The notes: generated by a model from the sequence alone, not told the origin. Positions 13,573 through 59,432 are shown, numbered from the stretch's first letter. The stretch: 64,000 nucleotides of DNA from a plasmid (NZ_CP118109.1); one strand, 5' to 3'. Translations and numbers: made by a program.

Positions 13573-13586
13573 TGTAACGCATTACA
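13573..13586. promoter_or_regulatory. TGTAACGCATTACA motif copy, 26 nt upstream of the ATG of the 13547 tail-assembly operon
   Basis: 14-bp near-palindrome recurring at operon starts. Confidence 0.5.
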
Positions 13587-13604
13587 TTTTTATTATACTT
13601 GCTT

Positions 13605-14372
13605 TTATCTTACATATAAAGGACCATTTATATCTCTGGCAATGAAATTGTAGACTTCCGTGATAGGCTGACCTTCAAAAGATGTACCGATGCCGACTTT
13701 GGATAAGCCATTAAGCTGCACTCCGTTTACTGTCTCAACTGTCACATTTGCAGGAGTTCTAAAACTTCCTGCAGTTGTAAAGAACTGCGTCCCCGGATTT
13801 AGCGACTCACTGACTGCACCATAGTTGATCTTAATATCGAAGCCGTAAGGATCAGCAGGGAAAAACGTTGTATATGGATTCGTCAACCTAGATTCATCAT
13901 CGGACGTTCCCCATAAAGCAGCTTCATATTCCTCAGCGATCTGCTCAAAGCTTTCCTTGCCATACATCGTTAGAATCTCATCCAACTTGTACTTTTTGAA
14001 ATCTTCTTTCTTAATAACGCCTTCCTGCTGTGCCTGATTGACCGCATAATTAATTGCGGTTGCATTCTTCAGCACTTCTTTCAGATATCCTACGCCCTTG
14101 AAGTTGATGCTGAACTGTCCTTGAACCATTCTCTGTCCGCGGGCAACCGTATCCATCGTATAGGAATGATATCCGTAAACCGGCAGCACCTGCTCACTCA
14201 GTGCAAACTGAATGGATGTCGCTTCGTCTACCCAAATATCTCCGAAGAATAAATTAACGTCTGCTCCTGAAAAGTAATCTTCATTAAATATCTGATACTC
14301 GACTCGATTATCGGGGCGCTTATAAAGGTTCCCTTGAGGGGATGGTTTTCTCCTTGAGCTATAAATGGCCAT
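13605..14372 (-). CDS. 255-aa tail tube-family paralog (tube initiator/terminator-like)
   Basis: Shares the segment LSEQVLPVYGYHS..RGQRMVQGQFSINF with the two tube proteins (..APIYTMGSPD..RGKRGISGSLVFTQF; ..FPVRALGRST..RGMRTITGVMSFTMF). Confidence 0.5.
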   Translation of the reverse strand: MAIYSSRRKPSPQGNLYKRPDNRVEYQIFNEDYFSGADVNLFFGDIWVDEATSIQFALSEQVLPVYGYHSYTMDTVARGQRMVQGQFSINFKGVGYLKEVLKNATAINYAVNQAQQEGVIKKEDFKKYKLDEILTMYGKESFEQIAEEYEAALWGTSDDESRLTNPYTTFFPADPYGFDIKINYGAVSESLNPGTQFFTTAGSFRTPANVTVETVNGVQLNGLSKVGIGTSFEGQPITEVYNFIARDINGPLYVR

Positions 14373-14857
14373 TATTTAATCACCCTTCTCATTGGATCAA
14401 TATCCAGAGCATAAAACTCATAGACGGATTCGGTGAGTAAGCTGTTAATACTTAATGACATACCTTCTGTATAAGTTGTAACACCATAAATCGTCAGTGC
14501 ACTTTTTGCTCCAAACTCATTTGCCATTGAAATGGTGATATCAAACATAGGCATCTCATCCATAAGCATGTTGTATCCTAGCTTTTTCACTTCTTCCATT
14601 GCTTGAAGAACAATGCTTTCATCAAACATCGTAAAACTCATCACACCAGTGATCGTGCGCATCCCCCTAGTGAAACCTTTCATGGTGCTTCTTCCTAGTG
14701 CTCGAACCGGAAACTTCTCTCTGAATATAGAATATGAAATAGTGGATAATTCACCGAATACTTGCGGCCCTTTTCCGGGCATATTAATAGTGGCTACGAT
14801 ATCTGAACCGGCGTAACTGGTGAACGTATGCATGTAGCCATTGGTCGCTCTTTTCAT
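14372..14857 (-). CDS. 161-aa tail tube protein paralog
   Basis: N-terminal FTSYAGSDIVATIN motif shared with the 240-aa tube protein. Confidence 0.55.
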   Translation of the reverse strand: MKRATNGYMHTFTSYAGSDIVATINMPGKGPQVFGELSTISYSIFREKFPVRALGRSTMKGFTRGMRTITGVMSFTMFDESIVLQAMEEVKKLGYNMLMDEMPMFDITISMANEFGAKSALTIYGVTTYTEGMSLSINSLLTESVYEFYALDIDPMRRVIK

Positions 14858-14884
14858 GGTGGCACCTCTTTCCTATAAGTATGT

Positions 14885-14913
14885 AAAAAAGGGCAGCCCT
14901 TTTGGAGCTGCCC
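14885..14913 (-). terminator. Rho-independent terminator GGGCAGC-N9-GCTGCCC followed by TTTTTT (minus strand), between the two tube genes
   Basis: 7-bp GC stem plus T6. Confidence 0.6.
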
Positions 14914-14921
14914 TTTGTCCA

Positions 14922-15644
14922 TTAGAGTACCGTTCTGAACAAATCGCCTACAGTGGAAATCATACCGTCAGAGCCTTCATTGCGGAGGTTATCTTTCGGA
15001 CGAACACCTTTCAGCTTGCGGGCCACGAACGTATACGCCTTAGCAGTAATAACATCATCTACAGAGAATCCAGAACCTTCATTCAAGACTTGAATACCAT
15101 AGATCTCCATACCCATGCGTTGACCGTACTCATTGGCACCAGTGATTGTGATATTGAATGGCATCAATTGGTCAGCGTATTCTGGTACATAGAAGCCAGT
15201 TAGGTTAGAATCATCGAATGAGTTAGCCCCTGTCTTCGCATAACCAAGACGAGTCATTTCATCATCCCATGCACTAATGCCATAACCGCGTTCTGTGTTT
15301 TTCAGACCGAAGATCAAGTCATCATCCATGTTTGCTTTGTATTGCTGGAAGGTTTGCATTGCCGGTGCGCCGGAATACGTTTTTTCCATTTCGCTAAGCA
15401 GAGCATCACGGTCGAACTGAGTAAATACCAACGATCCGCTGATTCCGCGCTTACCACGGGAGAACGAGCGGGCATCTGGCGACCCCATCGTGTAGATCGG
15501 TGCGACCTCACGAGTAACGGAGTAAGTAATCGCCTGGAGTTCACCAATGAGTCGTCCATTGAATGTTGCGACGATATCTGAACCAGCGAAGGAGCTAAAC
15601 GAGCGTGTATAGTTCTCCATGCTAGTGCCTGCGTTAATAGCCAT
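14922..15644 (-). CDS. 240-aa tail tube protein (major)
   Basis: Immediately downstream of the sheath gene; SFSSFAGSDIVATFNG motif; bracketed by hairpins. Confidence 0.55.
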   Translation of the reverse strand: MAINAGTSMENYTRSFSSFAGSDIVATFNGRLIGELQAITYSVTREVAPIYTMGSPDARSFSRGKRGISGSLVFTQFDRDALLSEMEKTYSGAPAMQTFQQYKANMDDDLIFGLKNTERGYGISAWDDEMTRLGYAKTGANSFDDSNLTGFYVPEYADQLMPFNITITGANEYGQRMGMEIYGIQVLNEGSGFSVDDVITAKAYTFVARKLKGVRPKDNLRNEGSDGMISTVGDLFRTVL

Positions 15645-15694
15645 TAAATTTCACTCCTTTATATTAGTTCTGGGGCAATTAAGCCCAAGAAGTA

Positions 15695-15722
15695 TGGTTC
15701 GGCATGTTTTACTATACCGAAC
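15695..15722 (-). other. Stem-loop GGTTCGG-N14-CCGAACC between the sheath stop and the tube start (no clear T-run)
   Basis: 7-bp perfect stem. Confidence 0.35.
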
Positions 15723-15729
15723 CTGATGA

Positions 15730-19139: not shown

Positions 19140-20176
19140 GTTCTCACCCTTACTTGAGAAGTCTGTGTCATTGCATAGACTGAGAAAATAGGAACGATCT
19201 CGATTTCAATGTTGATGACTCCCCTCAGTCTATCCGGTTCCAGTGTGTAATCGTATCTCTTGATTCGCTGAGCATCCATATGGCTTTCTGCAATCGATTG
19301 AATGATTGCTTCGGCTTCGGAAATGATGTACTCAATACCGATCCTCCCTACGTATTCTTGAAGATGATCAGCAATTTCTTGAATAAGAAACTGCGCAATG
19401 CGTAGATTAGAAATATGCTTGCTTGCACTGCTGGATGTAGCGACTGCACAACTTGAGGAGGAACAGACGACTCCTTTTTTTAAGCTATCTTTAAAACAGA
19501 CGATTCCAGCAGCACTTAGCTCCTGCATATCCTCTTTTGATAGCTCCTGCTTTAATTCCACATTTAGTGTCTTATTAACAGGGCTCTTTTCTGGATTCAA
19601 TGAAGCTACAAGCCCGGCGTATACCGCTGCCGCATGATGATCTTTCATTTGATCAAACACGACTGAAAAGTATTTGCCAAGCTCCTCATCACCGTTCTCA
19701 GTTGTCTGCGTAAGAGACTTAATATCTGAATAGATGGCTCGGATGCTTTCCATTGAATCCAAGTCTTTAACGTCGAAGAATCCATGTATTAGCTGACCTT
19801 GATACTCTTTATCCTGGGCAAATTGGATGAATTTTTGGATGGCCTCCGGATGAGTATTGAAGTATACTCCGTCGATGTATATGAGATCGAATGGGAATTT
19901 AAGGAGTGCACTAAGCGATGTTTGTAACGCATTACGTTCAACTCTCATTAAATAGGCTCCCACTTGACCACCTAGATATAAATCTTTGAAGCGCTCTATT
20001 AATGGTCCTTCGCCAAAGACTTTCTCTGCTAAAGTTACACTGGTGATTGCAATAGGATCATAAAGTGATCCTTTGGTAGATTCCCCAAGAACGATGATTC
20101 GTTTACCTATCGCCAGGTTTACACTGGAATAGATATGAGGAAGTTGAAAATAATCAATATTTGGTGAGGGCTGCAT
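19136..20176 (-). CDS. 346-aa hypothetical structural protein
   Basis: ORF in operon, overlapping starts and stops. Confidence 0.45.
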   Translation of the reverse strand: MQPSPNIDYFQLPHIYSSVNLAIGKRIIVLGESTKGSLYDPIAITSVTLAEKVFGEGPLIERFKDLYLGGQVGAYLMRVERNALQTSLSALLKFPFDLIYIDGVYFNTHPEAIQKFIQFAQDKEYQGQLIHGFFDVKDLDSMESIRAIYSDIKSLTQTTENGDEELGKYFSVVFDQMKDHHAAAVYAGLVASLNPEKSPVNKTLNVELKQELSKEDMQELSAAGIVCFKDSLKKGVVCSSSSCAVATSSSASKHISNLRIAQFLIQEIADHLQEYVGRIGIEYIISEAEAIIQSIAESHMDAQRIKRYDYTLEPDRLRGVINIEIEIVPIFSVYAMTQTSQVRVRT

Positions 20177-29601: not shown

Positions 29602-31667
29602 TATGAGTCCACTCCTTTTAGGGTATTGACGCCAAGTATAAATTCCCCGATTGGCCATCCTTCATCAAATCCGTTGCCTAGTGCGTACTGCACTTTCTCC
29701 TTACCGCTAATTTTAAAGAAGTCAGCTGGCTGTGGATGAATGAACGGCATTACACTATCAGAAGCAAGACGTTTTCGTTGATCTCTTATATTTGGCATAT
29801 AGACCGGATAGATGCTGTCGTTAGAATCAAAGCTAATTGCCTCATTCGTTGATCCAGCGAGGTCTTTCCGGATTTGTATATCATCTTGAATCAAAACATC
29901 GTAGTATTCACTTAACCGCTTTTGATAATCTGCGATGATTTGATAAGTGGAGCTTATACTTAATTGTGTTTGATCGATTAGGTTGGCAGAATGCCCAAGA
30001 GTCACATTTAGCCTTTCATCCAAAGCAACGTTTGTGACTTCATTAGCTTTATGCCGTGTAGTCTCGATCCATTTAAAGGATTCATGCAGATTCACATCTA
30101 CACTATCTTTAAAGGCAATCTGAGGCTCAAAATGAGCTTCTAAGCCTTCCAACATTTCGACCACCCAATCCTCTGAGTGGGTCGCTTTAATCGCCATATA
30201 GCCCTGATTCAGACGCTCTCCGATGCCTGCAAAATTGTCGAATGCTTCAACAATTTCATAGTCCACTAGAACGTGAGCCTTTTCTTGTATGCGGCCTATA
30301 AGCTTATCTACCAACTGAACAAAATAATCGTCGATATGAGGCAAAAAGTCTCCGTTTATCAGCTCTTTAACAAGATCCTTAACAATCATGTATTGCATTA
30401 CATCATCATCATGATAGATATCATATCTGACTATGCCATGAGACTTCTTCTTAGACAGATCCGCCTCATCCTCAACTTCCAGATAGAGACTAGCCGCCAA
30501 CTGATCAAGCGCTAGATAAGGGAATAAAGCATCGGTAATAAAGAGCTTCATAAGCATTAGCAGCTCTTCTTCAGGCTCCGCTATCAAAGCCTCAAGGATT
30601 TCATTCTTAAAGTAGTTGAGCTCTGTTTTTGTAGACTCCAAATGGACATAGTCCATCTGTTCTTGCAGAGCAGGCTCTAGTATCAATTGTACTGTACCAT
30701 TAGCTTTTAGAACAAAGTCGTCAGAAGGCATCAGATCATGTGCTGACTTCAATACTTCATGCTTTATATCGAAATCAGTGCTATCACCTAAATAAATCGC
30801 TTGATTTTCGCCGTTTTCTAAGAAGACTTCAATCCTGGACTTTTTAATGATTTTATCGATCGCGTCTTCAAGGAAAACTTCAAGAACAAACGTCACGATA
30901 TCATCTGTCCGATTCTTGATCTGGTCGGACACGCGGTGTAGCCTCATGAGCTCTGAGAACTCTTTCTGTGAGGACATAAAGCTTTCTTTGAACTCATGTC
31001 CTAGCTCCTTGCTGATCAGCTGAAATACTTCCTGAAGTGCAGCTTCCATCTGCTCATGTACACTTTCCATACCGTTAGCTCGAACAATGAATTGCTCGGA
31101 TGTGTCTGTCGTCATTTCATCCTCATGATTCATAAGGAAGTCATGTCTGGTTCGATCCTTGCGGAGCGTTGATTGAAGCGCGTCATCTACTATGAGACTA
31201 ACAAGACTCTCAACTTCTCCTTCTCGAACCATTGTCAGGATATCAAGAAGATCGTAAAGCATTTCATAAACTAAAAGCTCATTTTGATCGTCCTTGAGTT
31301 CTGAATAGATCCAATCACTTCTGTACCCGACATCTGATATTCCACGGATTCGATACTGATTGAGTCTTTTCACTTCACCCGGCTGCGGATTTAACCCAAG
31401 TGTTAGCCAATAGGATTCCGAAACACTGTCGATCGGTGAATCCAGAACGGCTTTAACACGGAATATAGCGCCTTCTACGCTGTCTGCTTCAAGGCCGGTA
31501 TCAACGCGCTTTTGTGTCACTATTGATGCGCTATCGCCTTCGGCTTGAACTACACGAAGACGATAGACACCTTCACTACCCGGAAAAGAAACTTGCCTGA
31601 ATAGCCGCTCTTTCATCGGATTTCCTGCATCAATAGTGAAAGGCATGACGCTCATTTCTTCATTCAT
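29601..31667 (-). CDS. 688-aa hypothetical structural protein
   Basis: ORF in operon. Confidence 0.45.
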   Translation of the reverse strand: MNEEMSVMPFTIDAGNPMKERLFRQVSFPGSEGVYRLRVVQAEGDSASIVTQKRVDTGLEADSVEGAIFRVKAVLDSPIDSVSESYWLTLGLNPQPGEVKRLNQYRIRGISDVGYRSDWIYSELKDDQNELLVYEMLYDLLDILTMVREGEVESLVSLIVDDALQSTLRKDRTRHDFLMNHEDEMTTDTSEQFIVRANGMESVHEQMEAALQEVFQLISKELGHEFKESFMSSQKEFSELMRLHRVSDQIKNRTDDIVTFVLEVFLEDAIDKIIKKSRIEVFLENGENQAIYLGDSTDFDIKHEVLKSAHDLMPSDDFVLKANGTVQLILEPALQEQMDYVHLESTKTELNYFKNEILEALIAEPEEELLMLMKLFITDALFPYLALDQLAASLYLEVEDEADLSKKKSHGIVRYDIYHDDDVMQYMIVKDLVKELINGDFLPHIDDYFVQLVDKLIGRIQEKAHVLVDYEIVEAFDNFAGIGERLNQGYMAIKATHSEDWVVEMLEGLEAHFEPQIAFKDSVDVNLHESFKWIETTRHKANEVTNVALDERLNVTLGHSANLIDQTQLSISSTYQIIADYQKRLSEYYDVLIQDDIQIRKDLAGSTNEAISFDSNDSIYPVYMPNIRDQRKRLASDSVMPFIHPQPADFFKISGKEKVQYALGNGFDEGWPIGEFILGVNTLKGVDS

Positions 31668-38350: not shown

Positions 38351-38383
38351 GTCACTTTATCTTAAATAATTATATATTAAAAA

Positions 38384-38397
38384 TGTAAGGCGTTACA
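38384..38397. promoter_or_regulatory. TGTAAGGCGTTACA motif copy upstream of the portal-candidate operon
   Basis: Same motif family. Confidence 0.5.
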
Positions 38398-39672: not shown

Positions 39673-39683
39673 AAAATATGTAA

Positions 39684-39705
39684 GGCGCAGAGATTAGTCT
39701 GCGCC
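39684..39705 (-). other. Stem-loop GGCGCAG-N8-CTGCGCC just upstream of the RBS of the 38404..39672 gene, embedding a TGTAAGGCGC half-motif
   Basis: 7-bp stem. Confidence 0.35.
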
Positions 39706-39821
39706 CCAGGGAAAGAGAGTTTGATGAGCCTAGCCAGAAAGGATACAGGGGATTTTTGCCTTCCACCAGGCGGCCCAATGGCCACAAGGGACAACGCATT
39801 ACTTCAGGCATTCCAGAGGAT

Positions 39822-44796: not shown

Positions 44797-44973
44797 TTAT
44801 TTTCCTTCGTTTTGCTCCGATTCAATAGCTTTCGATAATAATCGTCTGGCTTCTGTTGCCCAATCACCTGGCTTGATCTTATCGAAATGATCTTTAATAT
44901 CTGTATCGACATCACGAATGATGACTTGGACTTTCGGCACCTTCCGTGCTTTCGTCTCTCTTTCTTCAGCCAT
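44797..44973 (-). CDS. 58-aa small basic/acidic protein translationally coupled (TAATG) to the actin-like gene; candidate ParR/AlpR-type DNA-binding adaptor
   Basis: ATG overlaps the stop of the upstream gene; MAEERETKARKVPKVQVIIRDVDTDIKDHFDKIKPGDWATEARRLLSKAIESEQNEGK; below the 60-aa cutoff of the ORF track. Confidence 0.5.
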   Translation of the reverse strand: MAEERETKARKVPKVQVIIRDVDTDIKDHFDKIKPGDWATEARRLLSKAIESEQNEGK

Positions 44974-46213: not shown

Positions 46214-46742
46214 TCTGATGTATTCTCTCGTAAACGATCATAACATATTTAATAGATACCAAGCAACCCTTAATTTGGACAACAAAAAAAGCAGCAGGTG
46301 TGCCGCCCGCCGCTTTTCGAACAAGTGAAGCTGTATGAGGTTGGAGATCTCACGTATCCTTCGCTGAGTTATATTTTAAGCCATTTGGCAAAAAATATCA
46401 AGAACGTATGTTCTCTTTTTGTGATTTCTTTTCACAGAAAAGGCTTCAAGACCGTTGCCAACGTTTCAACATATGATTTCAACACTGGAGGTGTAATTTT
46501 AACAGATAGAGGGTGGCAGTCCTATGACCTGTTGGCTATTTACTTGAAGCCCTTTTCTCTAAAAAGAGTATTGGCATACTCCGGATTATTTTTTTGTAGG
46601 AGGTGTCGTGAGCCCATGCTAAGCATCACGATTAATCCGGAGCAAACCATACTGTGTCCAGTCAGCTATTTTGAGGAGAGCTGCTGCAGTCATCTGCCAA
46701 GTCGGGTCTGTGTTCTCGACTTGAGTTTATTCTATACGATAA

Positions 46743-46756
46743 TGTAATGCATTACA
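46743..46756. promoter_or_regulatory. TGTAATGCATTACA perfect palindrome copy at the edge of a 640-bp ORF-free region
   Basis: Same motif family. Confidence 0.45.
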
Positions 46757-46854: not shown

Positions 46855-47712
46855 TTATCCGTTATTACCTGGGGTGCTGTTGCCGATGTCACTAGCAGCA
46901 ATAGTATCGCCAAGGAGCATTTGTCTCGCCTCTTCAGTCGTTTGAAAACTCGCATTTAATCTCCGTCCTCTTCCATGTCTTATTCCATTGAATTTCCGCG
47001 CCCTTGCAAGGTCACATTCGATCTGTAAAGCAATTTGCTCTGCATCCATAAATAGCTCTCCATAACTAGATGGAGCTCTTGGAGAAGGCATGATAAAGGT
47101 CTGGACTTCATGATTTCCGATTCGTGGTTTTATTCGATGACCAAAAAACTTCTTAAACGTGTTATCCAGCAATGCTGTATATGTGGACACCATAATAACA
47201 TCAGCATAGATCATAACTTGTTCCAGCCAGCTTGAATGGATCATCATAGAGTCTGCTTCATCGAATATAACCAAGCAATCGTTTAGTTCTTGTGGTGAAT
47301 ATTCCCCGATCTTCATCTCGAAAGATATCGTCCTACCATTTTCCAAGGAGAACCCATTGGATGTATAATCGTATTGGATTCCATCCTGAATAAGGCGTGA
47401 CCTTATCATATCTCTATGGGCTTGTGATGAAGCAACATACCGATCAAATACAACAACGTTCTTGTTTGACCTGATTACCTTTTCACTTAAGGCAGTAGTC
47501 TTCCCTGCTCTCCTGTGAGCAACGACCGCAATATGGCCGTTATCGCACTCATGGAACAGTCTCCAGCGTTCTTGATAGTCAGACTCTTGGACGACGATAG
47601 GTTCTCCTGTTGCCCTTGATACCCTTTGCAAATATTCCATCAATAGCTCCAAGTGTTGTCCCTCCCTTCTCAAGCTCTCTGAAACGAGGAACAACCTCAC
47701 CTTCGTACTCAA
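46855..47712 (-). CDS. 285-aa P-loop NTPase (Walker A AHRRAGKTT, Walker B LVIFDEAD)
   Basis: Motifs; true start may be downstream (overlaps next ORF by 130 nt). Confidence 0.5.
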   Translation of the reverse strand: MSTKVRLFLVSESLRREGQHLELLMEYLQRVSRATGEPIVVQESDYQERWRLFHECDNGHIAVVAHRRAGKTTALSEKVIRSNKNVVVFDRYVASSQAHRDMIRSRLIQDGIQYDYTSNGFSLENGRTISFEMKIGEYSPQELNDCLVIFDEADSMMIHSSWLEQVMIYADVIMVSTYTALLDNTFKKFFGHRIKPRIGNHEVQTFIMPSPRAPSSYGELFMDAEQIALQIECDLARARKFNGIRHGRGRRLNASFQTTEEARQMLLGDTIAASDIGNSTPGNNG

Positions 47713-47887
47713 TAGGATTGTGCCATTCTAACAGTGGGCGATAAAATTTCTGATCAGGCTCGTCCTCACGATAGTACCAGACTGCTTTTCCATCCTCATG
47801 ACGACTTGCATCAATACCTATGTCAGATATGACATATAGTCCACCTTTGTAGTGCTGCCACCTTGATCCGATCTTCGGGGTTCTCAT
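47579..47887 (-). CDS. 102-aa DUF1653-like protein
   Basis: GSRWQHYKGGLYVI ... VWYYRED matches the DUF1653 signature. Confidence 0.5.
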   Translation of the reverse strand: MRTPKIGSRWQHYKGGLYVISDIGIDASRHEDGKAVWYYREDEPDQKFYRPLLEWHNPIEYEGEVVPRFRELEKGGTTLGAIDGIFAKGIKGNRRTYRRPRV

Positions 47888-48084
47888 ATACTTTCACCTC
47901 CTAGGTCAGACACGTCCAGCTTAGTTTCAAAGGTTATATACTTCATGGGCTGTGCCCTTACAATGTCTAGCTGCCAAGCTCCTGATTCGCAATACATGAT
48001 AATCCTGTCGCCTTCTGCAACTATAGACTCTAAGCCAGGGAAGCTTTCGTCTAAAGCCTTCAGGACTTGATTTGCTATTTTCAT
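47884..48084 (-). CDS. 66-aa hypothetical protein
   Basis: ORF coupled to its neighbours. Confidence 0.4.
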   Translation of the reverse strand: MKIANQVLKALDESFPGLESIVAEGDRIIMYCESGAWQLDIVRAQPMKYITFETKLDVSDLGGESI

Positions 48085-48467
48085 AACTGCAGGTCCTCCC
48101 TAGCCAATTGCCAATCTCTCGCAAGCAAGTCTTCGTCTGTAAGGCTATAGCTTTTCCATCTCTGCAGCTCTTCTTTGAACATCAGGCGACCTTCGATATA
48201 CCTGTACCTTTTTCCAAGCTGTCCGCTTCTCTTTAACTTGTATCCGTTCGTAAGCATACGTATGGCAATACTAGTATCGAATGATTCCATATACTGAATA
48301 TCCACTTCTTCTGGAATAATCATGAGTGGTCTGCCTTGACCGAATCTCATTTTCCATTTGTCCGCCATTTCTTTTGCTTCTTTAAACGGCATCGAACTTG
48401 GTATCTGCATTATATAGATACCGTTAAGAGAATAAACATTATCGATGTACTTCTGCATCAGCTCCAC
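48081..48467 (-). CDS. 128-aa MELM-family small protein
   Basis: N-terminus MELMQKYIDN shared with five other ORFs in the window. Confidence 0.45.
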   Translation of the reverse strand: MELMQKYIDNVYSLNGIYIMQIPSSMPFKEAKEMADKWKMRFGQGRPLMIIPEEVDIQYMESFDTSIAIRMLTNGYKLKRSGQLGKRYRYIEGRLMFKEELQRWKSYSLTDEDLLARDWQLAREDLQL

Positions 48468-48777
48468 TTTCGCGAAACCTCCTTATCTTGTATGAGGCGC
48501 CATAGAAGTCTGGATTAGGAAGCATCATCAATTGGAATGTCCTCATAATGTTTTCCCTGTTGGCTTTCAACGTTTTACAATTTCTTATCTTCTTATCCGT
48601 GAAGTAATAGAATATGTCTCCGCCATCAGTTTCTCTACATCTCACACTGAATAGATGATCACCTGATTCAGCGATCTCTCCGGGTTGAATGTAGTAGACA
48701 ACGTCTGCAAGATTAAGCCACTTGCTTCTCGACAGTTCCTCTTTCCATTTCTCTGAATAGACCTTCATCAATTCCAA
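48439..48777 (-). CDS. 112-aa MELM-family small protein
   Basis: N-terminus MELMKVYSEK. Confidence 0.45.
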   Translation of the reverse strand: MELMKVYSEKWKEELSRSKWLNLADVVYYIQPGEIAESGDHLFSVRCRETDGGDIFYYFTDKKIRNCKTLKANRENIMRTFQLMMLPNPDFYGASYKIRRFRESGADAEVHR

Positions 48778-49122
48778 CTAGGCCCCCGCCTTCCTCTTAG
48801 CCTTCATCTTTTGTTTCAAGCGGCAGGAATCACATGCCCTCTTTGTGCTGTTGTTCTCTTTCCCGCATATTGTGCATAGTCCATTTGCTAAACGATATGA
48901 TCGCTTCGCTCTGGCATAGTGCACAACGCATAGTCCTTTTGAGATGGGCTTCTTATGGCACCCTTCTTCGATACACTCCGTATGCTCGTACATCGGTCTC
49001 CCTGTTCCTGCTAACACAATGGTGGGATCGTTATGCCGCTTAATTCTTCTGTAATGCTTCCAGCAGTGCCCTTTTGCGATAACTTCTTTTCCACAACGAG
49101 GAAATTCGCATATGGCTTTCAT
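48778..49122 (-). CDS. 114-aa Cys-rich zinc-finger repeat protein
   Basis: Repeats of C..GC..(5-8)..GLC..HY.R (CEFPRCGKEVIAKGHCWKHYRR; CIEEGCHKKPISKGLCVVHYARAKR). Confidence 0.5.
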   Translation of the reverse strand: MKAICEFPRCGKEVIAKGHCWKHYRRIKRHNDPTIVLAGTGRPMYEHTECIEEGCHKKPISKGLCVVHYARAKRSYRLANGLCTICGKENNSTKRACDSCRLKQKMKAKRKAGA

Positions 49123-49322
49123 TTCATTACGTCTTCCTGCTGATAGACTATAGATTGTTGCGCTTCTCCCACCGTCTGCAAGCTATCTCCTTGAACATAG
49201 ACCGCATACGTATTTCGATCTATTGAATCCATCTCAATCCCAATGATTGAGATTCCCTCCTTAAGATGAAGCGCTTGCTCGAGCACTTCTTTCGTCACAA
49301 CAATCTTTCCTTGCTTTTTCAT
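49119..49322 (-). CDS. 67-aa hypothetical protein
   Basis: ORF coupled to its neighbours. Confidence 0.4.
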   Translation of the reverse strand: MKKQGKIVVTKEVLEQALHLKEGISIIGIEMDSIDRNTYAVYVQGDSLQTVGEAQQSIVYQQEDVMK

Positions 49323-49696
49323 TATTTGCTTGCCTCCAATTTATGTTCGTCTTCTTCTGCGCGCTTTTTAAGATAATGCCTCCTGCATAGCTTTCTTGCT
49401 AGAGCTGGTTTGCTGCACCCCTCTTCAATACATTCGCAATCGTTATTGGACTTGCCACCGATCATGTATTGATTACATCCCATTTCTTTTCTTCGATTCT
49501 TTGCATAGCAATTAGGGCAGAGGCCGAGCGCTTTCACTTTGTTAATACCACATGCTGAGCAAGACTTTGGTCTATCATAATCTTGCTTCTCGTATGTTGG
49601 GTCTCCGTATAGCCATTTCCTCCGATAGTGTTTTGCACAAAGCCCTGTTGATCTAACATGCTCGTTGCATCCTTCAATCGCGCATTCTTTTGACAT
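49322..49696 (-). CDS. 124-aa Cys-rich zinc-finger repeat protein (paralog of 48778..49122)
   Basis: Three CxxGC...GLCxxHYxR-type repeats. Confidence 0.5.
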   Translation of the reverse strand: MSKECAIEGCNEHVRSTGLCAKHYRRKWLYGDPTYEKQDYDRPKSCSACGINKVKALGLCPNCYAKNRRKEMGCNQYMIGGKSNNDCECIEEGCSKPALARKLCRRHYLKKRAEEDEHKLEASK

Positions 49697-49729
49697 TACA
49701 TAGCTCTCCTCAGTACATGCGTGTTTGTA

Positions 49730-50260
49730 TTATTTTTTGTTTACGAATCCCGTTGCTACGTTTAAACCTATTAGCATATCAGGGTTCACGCCTTCATCAA
49801 ATACAACAGGAGTATCTTGGTCAAACCCTTTCACACTTGCATCGAAAACCGACATAATGCGATCATATTTTGATTGTTCTTTTAATGCCTCTGCAATACT
49901 TCTGTGTCTTACAACAACGATACCTTCGATATCTTTAGCAAACTCAATCAAAGCAGTTGTTTTTCCGACTTGTCTGAGATATTCATCGACATAAATATAA
50001 TTATGATTTTCGGCAGCGTGAAGTAATTTATTCTTGATCGTCATGAGCATCATGGGCCTCAAAGCTTCTCGCAGATCGTCCGACTTCTTCTCTTCTTTTT
50101 TAATTAAATCAAATGACTTTTCAATCGTGCCGCTATCTCCTTCGTGTTTTTCAATAGCTAACATAATCTGCCCATTTGTAGGATACTGTTCGAATGGTCC
50201 TTCTGTTTTGATATAACCGCCGTCTTTTGATATGTGTATTAAGAATGTTTCTTTTAACAT
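49730..50260 (-). CDS. 176-aa protein with C-terminal P-loop (QVGKTTALIEF) and VVFDEG
   Basis: Walker A/B-like motifs; first gene of the minus operon leaving the divergent control region. Confidence 0.45.
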   Translation of the reverse strand: MLKETFLIHISKDGGYIKTEGPFEQYPTNGQIMLAIEKHEGDSGTIEKSFDLIKKEEKKSDDLREALRPMMLMTIKNKLLHAAENHNYIYVDEYLRQVGKTTALIEFAKDIEGIVVVRHRSIAEALKEQSKYDRIMSVFDASVKGFDQDTPVVFDEGVNPDMLIGLNVATGFVNKK

Positions 50261-50287
50261 GGATAATCATTCCTTTTTTATTTTTTT

Positions 50288-50365
50288 ATTTTCTATACTC
50301 AAATTGTAATGCGTTACATTTTATTTGACAACAATTAAATTTTCTATAGGGGGCAATTTTCTATA
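50288..50365 (+). repeat. Three direct copies of ATTTTCTATA (50288, 50339, 50356) in the divergent control region
   Basis: Exact 10-mer repeats. Confidence 0.5.
50305..50318. promoter_or_regulatory. TGTAATGCGTTACA motif copy in the divergent control region
   Basis: 45 nt upstream of the minus gene start at 50260; followed on the plus strand by TTTTATTTGACA. Confidence 0.5.
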
Positions 50366-50389
50366 AAAAAATTTTTGCGTGGGGTACCT

Positions 50390-50450
50390 AGTTGTTTATT
50401 GTTGGCTGATGGTAGCGTTCGACGCCCCACCCCCTCAACAATAAGCAACC
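50390..50450. promoter_or_regulatory. Inverted pair AGTTGTTTATTGTTGG / TCAACAATAAGCAACC with a nested GTGGGG...CCCCAC dyad, ahead of the membrane-protein/polymerase operon
   Basis: Imperfect 16-bp inverted repeat with ~30-bp spacer. Confidence 0.4.
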
Positions 50451-50503
50451 ACATTAGGGTTGGCAGTGATCCCAATCAAACTGCACATCGAAAGGAGTCT
50501 ATC

Positions 50504-50992
50504 ATGACTAACACATTATCAGCTATTGCTAACACTATGGGAGAGGACGCTGTTCTTAAGACTGCATCAGCTTTAGGTATTGCATGGAGAGTAACAAAGA
50601 ATGTAGCAGGCTTCGTATATAAGAACCTTATACATAAGCCTATTGTTAAGGCAGCTAATGTAATACGTAAGCATAAGTGGGAAACAGCTGCTACAGCAGC
50701 CTCTGCTGTAGTAGGTGGTGTAGCCACTACTAGCGTATGTGGTGCAGGGTTGATGGCTGCTGCTGTAGCTATGGTTGCTGTACTCACTATCCATTTCCTT
50801 ATTGCTAAGCGTAAGAAGCAGGCTATGGACTGGCGTAGAGCTATCTTATCAGCCATGGTATGCGGTCTTATAGCAGGGTTCCTGCCTGTAATATCTGTAT
50901 ACCTAACGATGTGGGCATGCATTGGTCTTGACTATGCATGGCTTGCATCTGCATATACGTATCTCTACACTGCTGCTTTGTTCGTGATCTAA
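50504..50992 (+). CDS. 162-aa predicted membrane protein (3 hydrophobic segments)
   Basis: RBS AAAGGAG 6 nt before ATG; strong NNT/NNA optimal-codon bias shared with the polymerase gene downstream. Confidence 0.55.
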   Translation: MTNTLSAIANTMGEDAVLKTASALGIAWRVTKNVAGFVYKNLIHKPIVKAANVIRKHKWETAATAASAVVGGVATTSVCGAGLMAAAVAMVAVLTIHFLIAKRKKQAMDWRRAILSAMVCGLIAGFLPVISVYLTMWACIGLDYAWLASAYTYLYTAALFVI

Positions 50993-51343
50993 TAGGTCAT
51001 GGACATGGCATGGTATAGATGCATAGGGAGTACACGATAACGGTGGATGATCCCCTATGTAGGCTATACCCTCTACCCTACCTTATATGGTGGCATGGGT
51101 GGCAGTACTATGGTTAGCCATATTGTGCCTATGTATATGGGCATATGGGTGTGTAGGTGCACTCTATCATATACAGCCCCTGTGTAGTACGCATGGTCCG
51201 GGTCAGCCGCCCCCATGTGTAGTATGCAGGGGTCTTTTTATTTATTTACACATAGCTCCCTGTATAGGTGCCCTATATAGACCCCCCTCTATATGGACCC
51301 CCCTATATAGGGAGCTGTATGTAAGTACAGCACATTTAACCCC
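50993..51343 (+). repeat. 350-bp ORF-free GC-rich array of about 10 degenerate CCC(C)TRTRTAGG-like words immediately upstream of the polymerase gene
   Basis: cccctatgtagg, ccttatatggtgg, cctatgtatatggg, cccctgtgtag, ccccatgtgtag, ccctgtatagg, ccctatatag, cccctctatatgg, cccctatataggg; T-run at ~51230. Confidence 0.5.
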
Positions 51344-51359
51344 AAGGAGGAATCACTCT

Positions 51360-54300
51360 ATGTCAACTGATTCAAAGAAAGCTATGTCGTCCGTCCCTAT
51401 GTCCAACAAACAAACTAAAACAAACAAAAAGGAGCAATCTACAATGACTAACAACAAACAAGCACAAATCAACAAGCAACTGGCTGAGGTAAACCGTCTT
51501 TTCAACAAAGCTATCAAAGGTAACAAACTAGAGGCGCAAATGTCTGATTACAAGTCTACTTCTGTAGTATTGGATGCTATTGCTGAGTTCCCAGGATTGG
51601 GCGTTAAAACAAAGAATTATGAGGCTATCACAGCTGCTATCGCTAGTGGTAAGGATATCCGTACTGTTATGGAGAACCCGGAGCTTACTGGTGTTCCTAA
51701 GAATCAATATCGCTTCTTCCGTGCATTCATGGAAGAGAAAGGTGCAGAGATTCCTGCTATGGTGATTGCACCTACTCGTAAGCGTGTACGTACTGTATCT
51801 GTCGATCTATTGAAACATTCCCGCAACGAAGCTGGTGAAGTGGTGCTCAACGCGGAAGTCAGCTATCAATCTCAGTCTCAGCTTGCTGATGCATTCGGTA
51901 AATTGGTTCCAGCTACAGATAGCAATGATCTACACTTGGATGCGACTCACATTGTCTATATCGATTTGAATATCGCTGATCAAGAGAATCAAGAAATGAA
52001 AGACTTGCAAATCGAGATCGTCCGTAATGGATTCTATTACACAGTGGAAGGCGTTACACGCAAAGCTAACTTCTTTATTCAGACAGCAAATCAAACTCGT
52101 CAATTGCAAGGTATCTATATTGCAGAGGACTTCATGACGATTCCTCAAGCATTCCGCAAGCTTGGTCATAGCTTCCTGTCTTATTGCAAACTGGATAAGG
52201 CTACTGGTGTCTATACACTGGATATCACGAAGTATCTGAAACGTCCAGGTCTGTCTGGTACAAGCTCTGTGCCATCTAAGGTAGTAACCTTCCCTAATGC
52301 TCATATCGACAAGCTGCCTAACATGAGAACAGGAGAATACTTGGTTAACTCTGATCGTCACTCTATGGCAGTGATTGATGATCGCTTTGCTAAGATCAAG
52401 AATGGTAAGTTCAAAGCATTCTATAACAACCGTGTAGTCACTGTATCTGCGGTTGATGGTACATTCACAGCTACATGGAAAGAAGGACGCATGACTAAAG
52501 AAGAAGTCCTGCCTATGAACTATCTGAAGCTTGGCGTAGGCGATGGCTTGGTTCTAGCTTCCGAGTCGATCTACTGGGCATTGAAGGCTGAGTTTGGCAA
52601 TGATTCCGATGCATGGCAAGTACGTATCACCCCATTCGTTAAAGGCTTGATGGTATTCGTGCCAGGCTTGCGTCAATACTATGATGCAGATATCGTTGCA
52701 TTCAAGTCTGCTGTGAAAGGTGACTTCCGTTTGCTTGCTGATAGCGAAGGTAAGATTGACTTTGGTATTGAGCTGCGTATTGCACGCTTTGCTAAGCGTC
52801 CTGCTATGAAGTCTGAGTATGTAGAGCTTCCATATCAGTTTGCACATGTATCCAGCATTACAGCAGAGCAAATGATTGATGTTGCTCAACCACGCCTGGA
52901 TGAAGCTAAGAGTGTACTTACTAATCCTGCACTGATTCAAAAGTATGCAGGGGTTGCTCACTTGGAGAAGCTGAACAAGCTGACTCTTGCACAAGCTGAG
53001 TTTCTACGTGATCGCTCCCTTGTTTCTGTATTTGCTAACTTCATGCACTATGCTCCATTCACATTCCAAGATGCTTACATGCAAACAAGAGCACTGAGAC
53101 TGATGGGGCAGCAAGTAGACAAATGGGTTGCTGGTACGATTCCTGTAGAAGGCGAGTATCGCTTCATGGTTCAAGATCCATATGCATTGCTTCAAGCTGT
53201 GGAAGATGAGAATGGAGATATGATTGTCCCTGATCACGTTGGTCTTAAGCCACACCAAACATTCATGACAGCACGCGATAACCAACACTTTGTAGAGGGC
53301 CCTGTTGCATCCTTCCGTAACCCTGCTATTGCTAAAGGTGAAGGACGTATCTTGAATGGTGTAGCTCCACAAAACTATGTGACTGCTTCTGCTAAAGGCG
53401 CATTCAACTCTGTATGTGTAATGAGCTGCCATGACTTGGATACATTCGCTGAAGGCGGAGCTGATAACGATGGTGATGAAACATTCATTACACAAGTACG
53501 TGCTATCGTTAATGGCATCATGGGTAAAGATGGTCAATCTAAGTTCTTGGCTATGCTTGACCTGCATGTAGATAAAGATGGTGAGTGGTCTTCTGGATGC
53601 CCGTTCCCTATGGAATCTGATGAGAAGCTTGCATTTGATGCTCCTTGCGTATCACACGATGGACAATTCAAAGTGAAGTTCACTGCCGATCAATATAATG
53701 ATGCATTCATTCAAGCTGTACATGAGCTAAGCAAAGAGTATGTCATTCGTACACTGACTCCTAACAAGATCGGTCAACTGACTAACATTGCTACTCGTCT
53801 TGCTGATGCTGTACGTAAAGTAGGATATATGTATGCAGAGAATACCAATGAGTTTGGTCAAAAGACTGAACGTTCAGATGCTGAGAAACAAGAGCTGATT
53901 AGAGAGATCGCTCGTATGGAAGATATGATCGACTTGATTCGTCTGGCTCAAGGATGGGAGATTGACCGTGCTAAGCATGGTGGTGCATATGAGGAAGCAT
54001 TGGCTGCTGAATTGGAGTTCATCAACAATCCTCCAAGATATGCAGGATTCCAAGAGTCACCTAAATCCAAGCGTCAATGGATCAAGCAAGCATGGCTCGC
54101 ACATCACAAAGGTGCTGAGGGTGGAGTAGACACAGGTTCTGTAATGTCCCGTGTGCATAACCACATGAAAGCATTCGTACAAGAGAATGTAATCGACAAG
54201 TCCGAAGAGATCATGAACGATGTAGAGAACAACAACCTGATTCATATCCTGAGAGCTGAGTATGTTATTGATCCAGTTATCTATGACAGAATCGCTAACT

Positions 54301-54992
54301 CTATTCGTTCCATTCGCTCTATCTATACAAACGACATCAAGAACGCTCGTCAGAAGCATGAAGAGTTCATCAAGCTTGCTGAGCTGAAATATGGTGAGGC
54401 TGATCCTGCACTGGCGATGGCTAAAGAGAAGATCGAGCGTATCTATAGAGATGATTGCGATGCGATCACCTATAAGAGTCAAATGACACTTGGCGCTTTG
54501 GAGTTCTCTTTCTCTGCGACTGATATCGGCTATGTTGCATACATGGTGACATACACTGAGAGAGGTCAAGATAACAATCGTTCGATCAGCTTCCCTTGGG
54601 TCGTGGCTAAGAAGCAATTCTTGGAGCTGTGTGCTGCTATCTCTAATCGTGAGATTGTGAAGAACCCTTATGTTGTCCCTGCATCTGATATCAAGGCAAA
54701 CTTCCGTATTGGGGCTGATTCAACTGGTCGTGTGTTTGATGGAGAGAGAATGGCACCTGTCATTGCGAATGCAGGTATGGTAACAGTGGAGTATATGTAT
54801 AACGAAGTTACTGAAAGCTACATGTATGTTGTTTATGTTCCAGTAGGCAGCAGAAATGTATATGTAGGCGACTTCTACCAAGATCAAGTTGGATTCTTGA
54901 CTGGTGCAACACGTTTCAATCTTACAGTGTCCAATGCTGAAGCTAAAGGCAGAACTATGAGTCTGACGATCTCCAGCATCGAACGCATGTAA
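51360..54992 (+). CDS. 1210-aa single-chain two-barrel (YonO/RDR/crAss gp66-like) RNA polymerase candidate
   Basis: Beta-prime DPBB signature VASFRNPAIAKGEGRIL ... GGADNDGDETF (compare NRAPTLHRLG ... NADFDGDQM); RBS AAGGAGG 9 nt upstream of ATG 51360 (alternative ATG 51444 also has an RBS); the track N-terminal extension from 51087 translates a repeat array and is rejected. Confidence 0.65.
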   Translation: MSTDSKKAMSSVPMSNKQTKTNKKEQSTMTNNKQAQINKQLAEVNRLFNKAIKGNKLEAQMSDYKSTSVVLDAIAEFPGLGVKTKNYEAITAAIASGKDIRTVMENPELTGVPKNQYRFFRAFMEEKGAEIPAMVIAPTRKRVRTVSVDLLKHSRNEAGEVVLNAEVSYQSQSQLADAFGKLVPATDSNDLHLDATHIVYIDLNIADQENQEMKDLQIEIVRNGFYYTVEGVTRKANFFIQTANQTRQLQGIYIAEDFMTIPQAFRKLGHSFLSYCKLDKATGVYTLDITKYLKRPGLSGTSSVPSKVVTFPNAHIDKLPNMRTGEYLVNSDRHSMAVIDDRFAKIKNGKFKAFYNNRVVTVSAVDGTFTATWKEGRMTKEEVLPMNYLKLGVGDGLVLASESIYWALKAEFGNDSDAWQVRITPFVKGLMVFVPGLRQYYDADIVAFKSAVKGDFRLLADSEGKIDFGIELRIARFAKRPAMKSEYVELPYQFAHVSSITAEQMIDVAQPRLDEAKSVLTNPALIQKYAGVAHLEKLNKLTLAQAEFLRDRSLVSVFANFMHYAPFTFQDAYMQTRALRLMGQQVDKWVAGTIPVEGEYRFMVQDPYALLQAVEDENGDMIVPDHVGLKPHQTFMTARDNQHFVEGPVASFRNPAIAKGEGRILNGVAPQNYVTASAKGAFNSVCVMSCHDLDTFAEGGADNDGDETFITQVRAIVNGIMGKDGQSKFLAMLDLHVDKDGEWSSGCPFPMESDEKLAFDAPCVSHDGQFKVKFTADQYNDAFIQAVHELSKEYVIRTLTPNKIGQLTNIATRLADAVRKVGYMYAENTNEFGQKTERSDAEKQELIREIARMEDMIDLIRLAQGWEIDRAKHGGAYEEALAAELEFINNPPRYAGFQESPKSKRQWIKQAWLAHHKGAEGGVDTGSVMSRVHNHMKAFVQENVIDKSEEIMNDVENNNLIHILRAEYVIDPVIYDRIANSIRSIRSIYTNDIKNARQKHEEFIKLAELKYGEADPALAMAKEKIERIYRDDCDAITYKSQMTLGALEFSFSATDIGYVAYMVTYTERGQDNNRSISFPWVVAKKQFLELCAAISNREIVKNPYVVPASDIKANFRIGADSTGRVFDGERMAPVIANAGMVTVEYMYNEVTESYMYVVYVPVGSRNVYVGDFYQDQVGFLTGATRFNLTVSNAEAKGRTMSLTISSIERM

Positions 54993-58318: not shown

Positions 58319-58557
58319 TGATCAATCAAACTAAATTCACAGTTAATGATGTTCCGCTTAAGACTAAGAAGGAGGCTGTACGTGCTTTATGTGCCACAGC
58401 CAACTTCAATTGTTTGCATATAGAAGAATTATGGTGTTACAAAGAAGTTTGTGAATTATTTAGCATTACTCCTGATGATTATTGGAATGACGAAGCAGAG
58501 CTTGATGAAGAACATCTTATGCATGCTGGTAATGATAATTGGAAGCCTCGTATTTAA
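58318..58557 (+). CDS. 79-aa hypothetical protein
   Basis: TAATG-coupled. Confidence 0.45.
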   Translation: MINQTKFTVNDVPLKTKKEAVRALCATANFNCLHIEELWCYKEVCELFSITPDDYWNDEAELDEEHLMHAGNDNWKPRI

Positions 58558-58593
58558 TTTTTTTCTTTTGCCGATCCTTCGGAACGGCGCTAC
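58556..58593 (+). promoter_or_regulatory. Conserved element TTTTTTCTTTTGCCGATCCTTCGGAACGGCGC, copy 2, 28 nt upstream of the 58620 start
   Basis: Same ~34-nt element; T-run precedes rather than follows the hairpin, so it is not a canonical terminator. Confidence 0.45.
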
Positions 58594-58619
58594 ATACTAC
58601 ATTTTAGGAGGATACATAC

Positions 58620-58853
58620 ATGCCTGAGAAAACATACATTCCATGTGTATTAAAAAACAATAGAGATGGTCGCATTATCAACCAGTCTTTTACACCACGC
58701 CAGCTGTTAACAGATTTTTATGACGAGAACGAGCTTGCTGAAGCTATGGTTGCATCTGCTTGCAATTGTCAGCCTATTGGTGAGACTTATGATACAGACT
58801 GCAACTGTTTTGAGGAATGGGAGAATTACAGTATTGTTATAGGAATTGAGTAA
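58620..58853 (+). CDS. 77-aa Cys-containing small protein
   Basis: RBS TAGGAGG. Confidence 0.45.
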   Translation: MPEKTYIPCVLKNNRDGRIINQSFTPRQLLTDFYDENELAEAMVASACNCQPIGETYDTDCNCFEEWENYSIVIGIE

Positions 58854-58862
58854 CTTATCGCT

Positions 58863-58895
58863 CTCGGGAGCCTAACGGCTCCGGGGGCTTTTTGA
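58863..58895 (+). terminator. Terminator GGAGCC-TAAC-GGCTCC followed by GGGGGCTTTTT
   Basis: Hairpin plus T5. Confidence 0.6.
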
Positions 58896-58921
58896 ATTTA
58901 TACATATGGAGGTTATTTATA

Positions 58922-59365
58922 ATGCGTATACATAACGAAAACTTTGAACATGTGATTTCTATGATGTTTTATGGCTACAAAGCATCTTCACACAATCCTG
59001 AGTGCTTCAGCTCTTCTGATCTTCGTATTGAGATGTGGGCAGAAGCATGCTGTAATGACATCATCAACAAGATGCGTGATCAAGGCTATGATCCTGCTCT
59101 TATCGTACCGGTTATCAGCAAGCCTGAAATTGATTTGAAATACTATCCAGATGCTAATCCTGCTTTAAAACAAGAGCTTGATGATGAGTTTGGCGGCTTT
59201 GTGGTTAATAACGATTTATACATGCTTGGTCTTCGCGCTTGGTATGCTGATGGTCATGAATATATCTCTCAGTTTGGCACACCATGCGATGATGAGAATG
59301 ACGGTCCATTTGGTGGCGCCTTTGCTTCTGAAGGCGATTACTACAACTATGTCGGTGCCTTGTAG
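58922..59365 (+). CDS. 147-aa hypothetical protein
   Basis: RBS TGGAGG; followed by a terminator. Confidence 0.45.
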   Translation: MRIHNENFEHVISMMFYGYKASSHNPECFSSSDLRIEMWAEACCNDIINKMRDQGYDPALIVPVISKPEIDLKYYPDANPALKQELDDEFGGFVVNNDLYMLGLRAWYADGHEYISQFGTPCDDENDGPFGGAFASEGDYYNYVGAL

Positions 59366-59392
59366 GAGCCTAACGGCTCCGAGGTCTTTATG
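59365..59392 (+). terminator. Second copy of the GGAGCC-TAAC-GGCTCC hairpin, overlapping the stop of the 58922 gene
   Basis: Identical hairpin, weaker T tract. Confidence 0.45.
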
Positions 59393-59418
59393 ATATTATT
59401 ATGTTATCCGATATATAA

Positions 59419-59432
59419 TTTAACGCATTACA
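59419..59432. promoter_or_regulatory. TTTAACGCATTACA degenerate motif copy 27 nt upstream of the 59459 start
   Basis: 13 of 14 identical to the copy at 13573; same downstream TTTTA context. Confidence 0.4.

Follow-up and report, generated by a model that had tools for sequence, protein, structure and literature searches.

A recurring 14-bp palindrome at the promoters of a jumbo phage-plasmid, a probable operator of a dimeric regulator

Introduction

What is the function of a short palindrome that stands repeatedly at the operon starts of a jumbo phage-plasmid? The question arises from a 64,000-nucleotide stretch of plasmid NZ_CP118109.1 (hereafter the window, meaning the whole of that stretch), in which copies of a 14-bp palindrome, TGTAAYGCRTTACA, are scattered between positions 13,573 and 59,432. 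By its large terminase, portal, sheath and a 1957-residue virion protein, the window belongs to one lineage with Bacillus phage 0305phi8-36 and Moorella phage MTATph1. A megablast search with 6 kb around the portal found no match among GenBank phages, which offer only distant, protein-level relatives. Relatives whose portals are 48-60% identical exist as complete 200-260 kb plasmids carrying ParM/StbA genes, in Paenibacillus rhizovicinus (strain 14171R-81), Bacillus thuringiensis, B. halotolerans (strain B13) and B. (para)licheniformis; a further relative is a 198-kb contig of Alicyclobacillus shizuokensis. Because the relatives are complete, ParM-bearing plasmids, the family evidently lives as jumbo phage-plasmids. 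These 0305phi8-36-like elements rank with the largest phage-plasmids known from Bacillales, and to our knowledge almost nothing is known of how they are silenced and switched on.

We propose that the palindrome (core GTAAYGCRTTAC) is probably an operator through which a dimeric, sequence-specific DNA-binding protein governs promoters of the host sigma-A type all over the element. From the motif, its excess, its conservation and the geometry of the promoters, we infer that a protein binds there, that it is encoded by the phage and that it represses. As such, the palindrome belongs to a known class, the multi-copy operator of a phage master regulator, and outlines the regulon of these unstudied jumbo phage-plasmids. 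A literature search for the motif sequence found no description of it.

Throughout, L-numbers denote contigs of relatives (L013, Alicyclobacillus; L066, B. halotolerans; L005-L009, 0305phi8-36; L058, SPbeta), and the 83% relative is a 58-kb sequence of 83% identity assembled from L011, L001 and L010.

Results and discussion

The palindrome is in excess, intergenic and conserved

Three exact matches to the palindrome occur in the window (at 13573, 46743 and 50305), against 0.00 expected from 100 dinucleotide shuffles; with up to two mismatches there are 10, against 0.61 expected. Its core, AACGCATTA, is the commonest 9-mer of the entire window. The sequence-only reading that drew attention to the motif had counted five copies, a number that holds if one mismatch is allowed: the copy at 38384 (TGTAAGGCGTTACA) has a G at the Y position of the consensus, and that at 59419 a T at position 2. 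By the gene map used here, intergenic DNA makes up 6.3% of the window but contains five of the seven copies that have one mismatch or none (binomial p = 2e-5), and their placement at operon starts is as that reading described it. The distances to the start codons are likewise correct on the proper strand (genes run on the minus strand from 6.2 to 50.26 kb and on the plus strand from 50.5 kb onward), the A of the ATG at 13547 lying 26 nt and the ATG at 59459 lying 27 nt past the palindrome. The two coding copies, at 19923 and 30389, are probably non-functional judging by their sequence context, and their retention in the 83% relative is no more than coding sequence of that identity would show anyway. 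Two degenerate half-sites listed earlier, at 39679-39690 and 39793-39802, are half-sites and no more, and they lend the motif no support.

The 83% relative keeps the palindrome at four of the five sites (the orthologues of 13573, 38384, 46743 and 50305) and has no copy upstream of the orthologue of the 59459 gene. A genome-wide search of the complete Paenibacillus relative bore the pattern out: allowing one mismatch, we count 25 copies in this element where shuffles give about 0.15; 10 of these copies are exact and 21 are intergenic. Palindrome-positive elements comprise NZ_CP048288, NZ_CP114067, NZ_BCQV01000007 and the B. licheniformis plasmids. At the portal promoter the palindrome is kept in more than 10 elements from Paenibacillus, Bacillus and Alicyclobacillus, down to about 50% portal identity, and the arrangement palindrome-N9-TATAAT precedes the portal gene in the window, L001-L004, L013, L020/L052, L026/L035, L029 and the B. 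halotolerans plasmid.

The motif itself is unchanged across elements whose hosts range from 37 to 53% G+C. Its arms do not vary, unlike the YGCR at its center; in L013 (Alicyclobacillus), both outermost bases have changed in a symmetric way, giving CGTAATGCATTACG. Invariant arms, a variable centre and a symmetric change are together typical of a dimer reading double-stranded DNA. The motif is absent from 0305phi8-36 and from the first 50 kb of MTATph1, and is thus specific to a sub-clade; pBtic235-type plasmids may be a further palindrome-negative group. IMG/VR was also scanned for the pattern palindrome-N8-11-TATAAT. Of the 44 loci found, roughly half were chance matches or unrelated, and one high-G+C group, with two GTAACGCGTTAC copies flanking a TATAAT, was judged unrelated.

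Table 1. Palindrome copies, promoters and associated genes in the window, with positions counted from its first nucleotide.
Feature	Position	Strand	Context
Palindrome copy, register C	13573..13586	minus	TATAAT-N5-palindrome-ribosome-binding site-ATG, upstream of tail-chaperone-like gene 13092-13547
Sigma-A-type promoter TTTATA (13620-13615), 17-nt spacer, TATAAT (13597-13592)	13592..13620	minus	Read from sequence
One-mismatch copy, probably non-functional	19923..19936		Inside coding region; no promoter-like hexamers nearby
One-mismatch copy, probably non-functional	30389..30402		Inside coding region
Portal -10 TATAAT	38369..38374	minus	9 nt downstream of palindrome
Palindrome copy, register A, one mismatch	38384..38397	minus	Over -35 and upstream spacer of portal-operon promoter
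Apparently non-coding transcript, ~430 nt	46286..46722	minus	5' end inferred from -10; terminator 46318-46286
Perfect palindrome, register A	46743..46756	minus	Forms -35 region of TTGTAA (46757-46752)-N17-TAGAAT (46734-46729)
Sigma-A-type promoter TTGTCA (50331-50326)-N17-TACAAT (50308-50303)	50303..50331	minus	Promoter scan, 10/12 matches; serves operon starting at 50260
Exact palindrome, register B	50305..50318	minus	Over spacer and -10 of leftward promoter in divergent region
YonO/RdRP-like two-barrel RNA polymerase gene	51360..54992	plus	DNDGD motif; homologous to 0305phi8-36 ORF99
Weakest intergenic copy, TTTAACGCATTACA, register C	59419..59432	plus	-10 TATAAT (59414-59419) overlaps by 1 nt; then ribosome-binding site and ATG 59459

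Palindromes overlap predicted host-type promoters in three registers

Assigned by hexamer matches, the promoters carry the palindrome in three registers: over the -35 (register A), over the spacer and -10 (register B), or after the -10 (register C). At four of the five intergenic window copies a TATAAT, TAGAAT or TACAAT adjoins the palindrome or lies inside it, and the fifth is overlapped by TATAAT. The sequence-only reading had held that the two copies closest to their start codons leave no room for a sigma-A promoter downstream. None indeed fits there, but the statement misleads, because the -10 lies upstream of the palindrome or within it; at both of these copies TATAAT is found directly upstream (Table 1). 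The association is general in the Paenibacillus element, where 12 of 20 intergenic copies have a -10 matching at 5/6 or better within -1 to 8 nt upstream, compared with 9.5% of control positions in open reading frame (ORF)-free DNA (p = 3e-8), and a perfect TATAAT occurs at six of the 20 compared with 1.2% of controls (p = 1e-7). The -35 is good at 50305 (TTGTCA, N17) and at the promoters of transfer RNA (tRNA) and small-RNA genes (TTGTAA, N17); elsewhere it is weak, with 3-4 of 6 matches (TTTATA, GTGTAA).

Register A is found before structural and RNA genes. The portal promoter reads GTGTAA, an 18-nt spacer and TATAAT; this TATAAT is invariant in a five-genome alignment, and the sequence of the 9-nt spacer separating it from the palindrome is not conserved. 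Similarly, the tRNA arrays of L002, L003 and L004 (1, 5 and 10 genes, respectively) are preceded by the palindrome, 8 nt, and TATAAT or TATATT. Alignment of the tRNA promoters yields an invariant block, T-TGTAATGC-TTAC ... TATAAT, that amounts to a -35-like TTGTAA, a 17-nt spacer and a consensus -10.

In register B, the -10 of the promoter at 50303..50331 consists of the right arm of the palindrome plus AT, and the palindrome and both hexamers are kept in the 83% relative as well as, with N18, in L040. Register C is the commonest layout in the Paenibacillus element, with gaps of -1 to 8 nt, at sites upstream of the dnaN region, an amidase, the dnaE operon, an S8 peptidase and others. Its example at 13573 has flanks that are unusually well kept in the 83% relative; the hexamers TTTATA-N17-TATAAT recur both there and in the Paenibacillus plasmid, and the same layout precedes the orthologous gene in the 83% relative (N5), L019 (N5, 56% protein identity) and the Paenibacillus element (N8). 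The overlapping layout at 59419 recurs at 112935 in the Paenibacillus plasmid.

Each arm of the palindrome is near a promoter hexamer in sequence, TTGTAA to TTGACA and TACAAT to TATAAT, so the palindrome can be built into either one. In register A, the left arm and the preceding T would supply a -35-like TTGTAA; in register B, the right arm and AT would supply a -10-like TACAAT; and in register C the palindrome would lie directly after the -10, over the transcription start, with the ribosome-binding site right behind. In each case a protein on the palindrome would compete with RNA polymerase. A variable register, with sites at and after the -10, fits the operator of a dimeric repressor and not a polymerase promoter or an RNA hairpin.

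The commonest layout does place the palindrome between the -10 and the ribosome-binding site, where it would be transcribed at least in part, and the motif could in principle act as RNA, either as a hairpin of the 5' untranslated region or as an mRNA site whose bound protein affects stability or translation. We consider this extremely improbable. The predicted RNA stem is worth merely -0.5 to -1.3 kcal/mol, gaps of -1 to 3 nt would put the start site within the palindrome, and copies in registers A and B lie outside the transcript altogether. In addition, the arms display sequence conservation rather than covariation, and there is no Rfam match.

The divergent region that holds the 50305 copy has further features. 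It is very well conserved with the 83% relative (84-90% identity), and TTTTCTATA(G/A) is repeated in it around a G-rich block. A conserved plus-strand gene for a membrane protein (~162 aa) lies between this control region and the polymerase gene; these features occupy 50261-50503 and 50504-50992. On the minus strand, the operon of the 50305 copy includes a weak match to a Tad2-like (anti-Thoeris) domain at 48081-48467, and Cys-rich proteins of 124 and 114 aa (49322-49696 and 48778-49122) that resemble HNH endonuclease zinc fingers.

The register shifts at a small-RNA promoter

The perfect palindrome at 46743 lies at the head of an apparently non-coding transcript upstream of the ParM-like gene 44973-46166. 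In relatives this small RNA is much shorter, at about 75 nt (L002:2630-2700 and equivalents), and ends with the same terminator sequence, GCGGGCGGCACACC(C/T)GCTG. Rfam searches of the non-coding stretches of the window, the small RNA included, found no family; the small RNA may take part in partition or copy control. A 149-aa plus-strand ORF at 46298-46747 has no homologs and no domains, and homology to the PadR-like ORF208 of 0305phi8-36 was tested for it and rejected.

The promoter in front of this RNA differs between lineages. In L002-L004 and L013 it reads TTGATT, TTGCTT or TTGCAG, N17 and TACAAT (TACACT in L003), and the palindrome occupies -22 to -9, that is, register B. Relative to the promoter, the palindrome is shifted by 13 nt, from the -35 in the window lineage to the -10 in L002-L004 and L013, and the overlap is kept. 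Such a shift is expected for an operator but not for a fixed-geometry activator or a polymerase promoter.

This bears directly on an alternative in which the protein at the palindrome is a phage activator or dual-function switch, which would replace a missing -35 contact at promoters of the portal and tRNA type and repress elsewhere. Its models are the early-to-late switches of the phi29 p4 or P1 Lpa type. Promoters in register A do combine a consensus TATAAT with a weak -35-like hexamer (GTGTAA or TTGTAA), and their palindrome-to--10 distance is fixed (N9 at the portal, N7-N8 at tRNA and small-RNA genes) even where the spacer sequences diverge. The fixed spacing would follow, however, if the left arm doubled as the -35 hexamer, and TTGTAA at 17 nt is already a usable -35 (4/6). 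Activation is implausible for the majority of copies, which lie over the -10 or after it, and the change of register at the small-RNA promoter also speaks against it. We therefore regard an activator as unlikely and continue to favor an operator for a repressor.

In relatives, arrays of 1 to 10 tRNA genes lie between a P-loop gene and the small-RNA/ParM locus (L002:2374-2462; L003:1653-2046; L004:436-1548; B. halotolerans L066:~5000-5300). The window has no tRNA genes, and the corresponding stretch is taken up by eight protein genes (46855-50260).

The palindrome is an unlikely promoter for the phage polymerase

The sequence-only reading had left the choice between a dimeric regulator's operator, a branch that is well supported by the above, and a recognition element for one of two phage polymerases, a branch that has found no support. 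Only one polymerase-like gene was found in the window (Table 1), and the 1957-aa ORF is a virion structural protein. The longest ORF of the polymerase gene, 51087-54992, encodes 1301 aa; its first 91 residues are Cys/Trp-rich and look non-genuine, and the real start is probably M92 at 51360 (or 51444). SPbeta YonO matches the orthologue of this polymerase in L040.

Could the palindrome, perhaps as an extruded hairpin, be the promoter of this YonO-like single-chain RNA polymerase? The element encodes such an enzyme, whose own operon lacks the palindrome that many other operons have; no palindrome-type promoter faces the polymerase operon in the window or in relatives. The promoter sequence of YonO had not been determined according to a 2017 report (PMC5467207), and Hardies et al. 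(PMC2147016) suggested that the homologous ORF99 of 0305phi8-36 recognizes a phage-specific motif. Still, we find the proposal very unlikely. A perfect palindrome lacks polarity and would give a polymerase no direction; as RNA, its hairpin is barely stable (-0.5 kcal/mol); and it occurs upstream of, within and downstream of a consensus TATAAT at variable distance, so that its placement is neither fixed nor host-independent. Furthermore, the 1.7-kb yonK-yonN interval of SPbeta, which includes the mapped YonO start site (PMC5467207), contains no copy even at three mismatches.

The candidate polymerase motif of 0305phi8-36 is also a different element. Like the palindrome, this 21-bp motif (PMC2147016) is recurring and intergenic and belongs to a related jumbo phage with a YonO-like polymerase, but the two share no sequence. 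When recovered here, it proved to be a hairpin whose stem varies and covaries; its conserved core, CGTTCGCACG, precedes TTTWTGTA and a ribosome-binding site, and no TATAAT accompanies it. The CGTTCGCACG core is absent among the commonest 9-, 10- and 12-mers of the window, where no search for CGTTCGCACG itself was made. Setting promoters of the host polymerase apart from the targets of the YonO-like enzyme leaves fewer places to look for the promoter of this class of polymerase.

Copies of the 0305phi8-36 motif (for example at 181417, 189535, 193197 and 207009) resemble a module of terminator plus start, in which a T-run, TGTA and a ribosome-binding site follow. The intergenic region between ORF207 (ParM-like) and ORF208 (PadR-like) of the same phage holds an inverted pair, TTGTACTACAT ... 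ATGTAGTACAA.

A proposed master repressor and its candidates

If the palindrome is an operator, the protein bound there would most likely be a master repressor, serving either to silence the element in its prophage or plasmid state or to shut genes off at a given time. It would act on the portal, tail-assembly, tRNA, small-RNA, replication, nucleotide-metabolism and lysis operons. Since the elements persist as plasmids, genome-wide silencing by a single master repressor is the simplest reading. An operator on about 25 promoters (of structural, tRNA, replication, nucleotide-metabolism and lysis operons) would define the regulon and provide a handle for finding the regulator.

Several observations weigh against this proposal. 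Pfam and PHROG scans of about 70 window ORFs found no recognizable helix-turn-helix, PadR or sigma domain and no cognate protein. The RNA polymerase operon is without a good copy, which is odd for a silencing repressor and is predicted by the phage-polymerase promoter model. The promoters were assigned solely by hexamer matches, their -35 matches are often weak (3-4/6), and several copies in the Paenibacillus element have no clear neighboring hexamers. The spacing from palindrome to -10 in register A is rigid across independent promoters (N8/N9), as would suit an activator that replaces the -35 contact. Finally, the one PadR/RTP-like protein found in a clade member appears to have another task. 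The Paenibacillus element encodes a 126-aa protein of the RTP/PadR family (PF02334, E = 5e-44) that is also conserved on B. licheniformis plasmids; its gene adjoins a RepO-like gene and is preceded by TGAACAT/ATGTTCA repeats. This neighbor and these repeats make a replication-terminator protein the likelier identity. A MerR-like 226-aa protein of the Paenibacillus element was also considered as the regulator and set aside, as it is not conserved on the sister plasmids.

Known operators offer several points of comparison. The B. subtilis PadR operator on the padC promoter, CATGTAAATAGTTACATG, is a repressor site read by a winged-helix dimer with the code TGNA-N6-TNCA (PMC5728393; PMC3506622). 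Its arms, TGTAA/TTACA, and its 4-bp center spacing are identical to those of the palindrome, and TGTAA-N4-TTACA fits the PadR code exactly. However, the outer C/G specificity bases (C6/G23) are not kept, the flanks of the palindrome being A/T-rich and variable, and the same scans found no PadR-family gene in the window. Phage 0305phi8-36 does encode a PadR-like protein, ORF208, and the Paenibacillus and B. licheniformis elements encode the RTP/PadR-like protein, but with different repeats at its own gene.

Among multi-site systems, the SPBRE of SPbeta is the site of the master repressor MrpR (SroF), with 10 peaks in chromatin affinity purification sequencing (PMC10516654), and its reader is a monomeric protein of integrase fold (bioRxiv 10.1101/2025.11.27.690993). 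It resembles the present case in being a short, promoter-overlapping motif at many promoter regions of a large phage genome kept as prophage or plasmid (25 copies here). It differs in being non-palindromic, about AAAATATGTATAT, where ours is a perfect 14-bp dyad, and the SPBRE/MrpR site was rejected as the same element on this ground.

The C1 operators of P1 are likewise multi-site and belong to a phage-plasmid, and they are asymmetric 17-mers. The LexA (Cheo) box, CGAAC-N4-GTTCG, and the CcpA cre site, TGWAANCGNTNWCA, are 14-bp dyads of 5-N4-5 form that overlap promoters. The arms of the LexA box differ in sequence from those of the palindrome; the cre site has outer arms in common with it, but the center of the palindrome is GC (YGCR, GC/TGCA) in all copies, whereas a central CG is obligatory in cre and other LacI-family sites.

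An exact copy in the SPbeta arbitrium region

The same 14-mer occurs in a well-studied phage. SPbeta (NC_001884.1) carries an exact TGTAATGCATTACA at 77857-77870, and its record annotates 77856-77871 merely as "palindrome"; a search of the literature found no described function for it. This copy lies between aimP/aimX and yopM, at -22 to -9 of the promoter TTTACT-N17-TACAAT of yopM, with which the sro repressor operon (yopM-yopR) begins, and so in register B. A one-mismatch copy at 77773-77786, 84 bp upstream, is next to the AimR site, and the two copies bracket the aimX hairpin. They are the only two in 134 kb (0.04 expected per 50 kb). The palindrome and the MrpR site are distinct.

One explanation, which we rate as quite unlikely, is that the palindrome marks an undescribed regulator shared or exchanged between 0305phi8-36-like jumbo phage-plasmids and SPbeta-type arbitrium phages. 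If true, this regulator would be both a missing input to the lysis-lysogeny switch of SPbeta and the global silencer of a ~200-kb phage-plasmid. In a search of clade DNA with SPbeta YopM, YopN, YopO, YopS, YopB, YonR, AimR, YopP, YopQ and YopR, no convincing match emerged; the best was YopN, with a marginal E = 0.003.

Alternatively, in a variant of the shared-regulator reading, the common factor would be a host protein of Bacillales, co-opted by these elements and SPbeta alike, through which they sense the state of the cell. The identical 14-mer in the yopM (sro) promoter with its one-mismatch neighbor, the lack of a detected phage regulator common to SPbeta and the clade, and the constancy of the motif across hosts of differing G+C all agree with this idea. 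On the other side, 25 copies per element are more typical of a self-encoded master regulator, and we know of no B. subtilis regulator with such a box. The critical central CG sets the cre site apart from the palindrome, and the Zur, TnrA and Rex boxes differ from it in spacing. We consider a host regulator decidedly unlikely, and a self-encoded repressor remains our preferred explanation for the jumbo elements. The exact match in the arbitrium/sro control region nonetheless provides a cheap, testable lead in a well-developed model.

Other features of the window and its relatives

The regulon continues past the right end of the window, beyond which an exact-protein look-up added 1.8 kb: a two-mismatch copy, TGTAAGGCAATACA, lies about 2.2 kb past that end (L060:6212-6225, a Logan contig of SRR23401452), 33 nt upstream of a gene for a YAcAr-domain protein. 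Within the window, three copies of TATTTCATATGA (62763, 62784 and 62854) fall at 62763-62866 in a 254-nt ORF-free gap, and these repeats could be iterons or another set of operators.

At the left end (1-6258), a minus-strand frame with no stop codon extends from near 6258 past the window edge, over at least 2086 codons, which is why the ORF list is empty there. By synteny with ORF146 of 0305phi8-36, it is probably the tape-measure gene.

Finally, the linear Paenibacillus record NZ_CP048288.1 repeats ~17 kb at both ends (10730 and 222500), which suggests terminal redundancy. An AgrB/AgrD quorum-sensing pair is encoded at 133872-134524 of this record, together with a GGDEF protein and a RemA-like protein, and all of these are possible inputs to a lysis-lysogeny decision.

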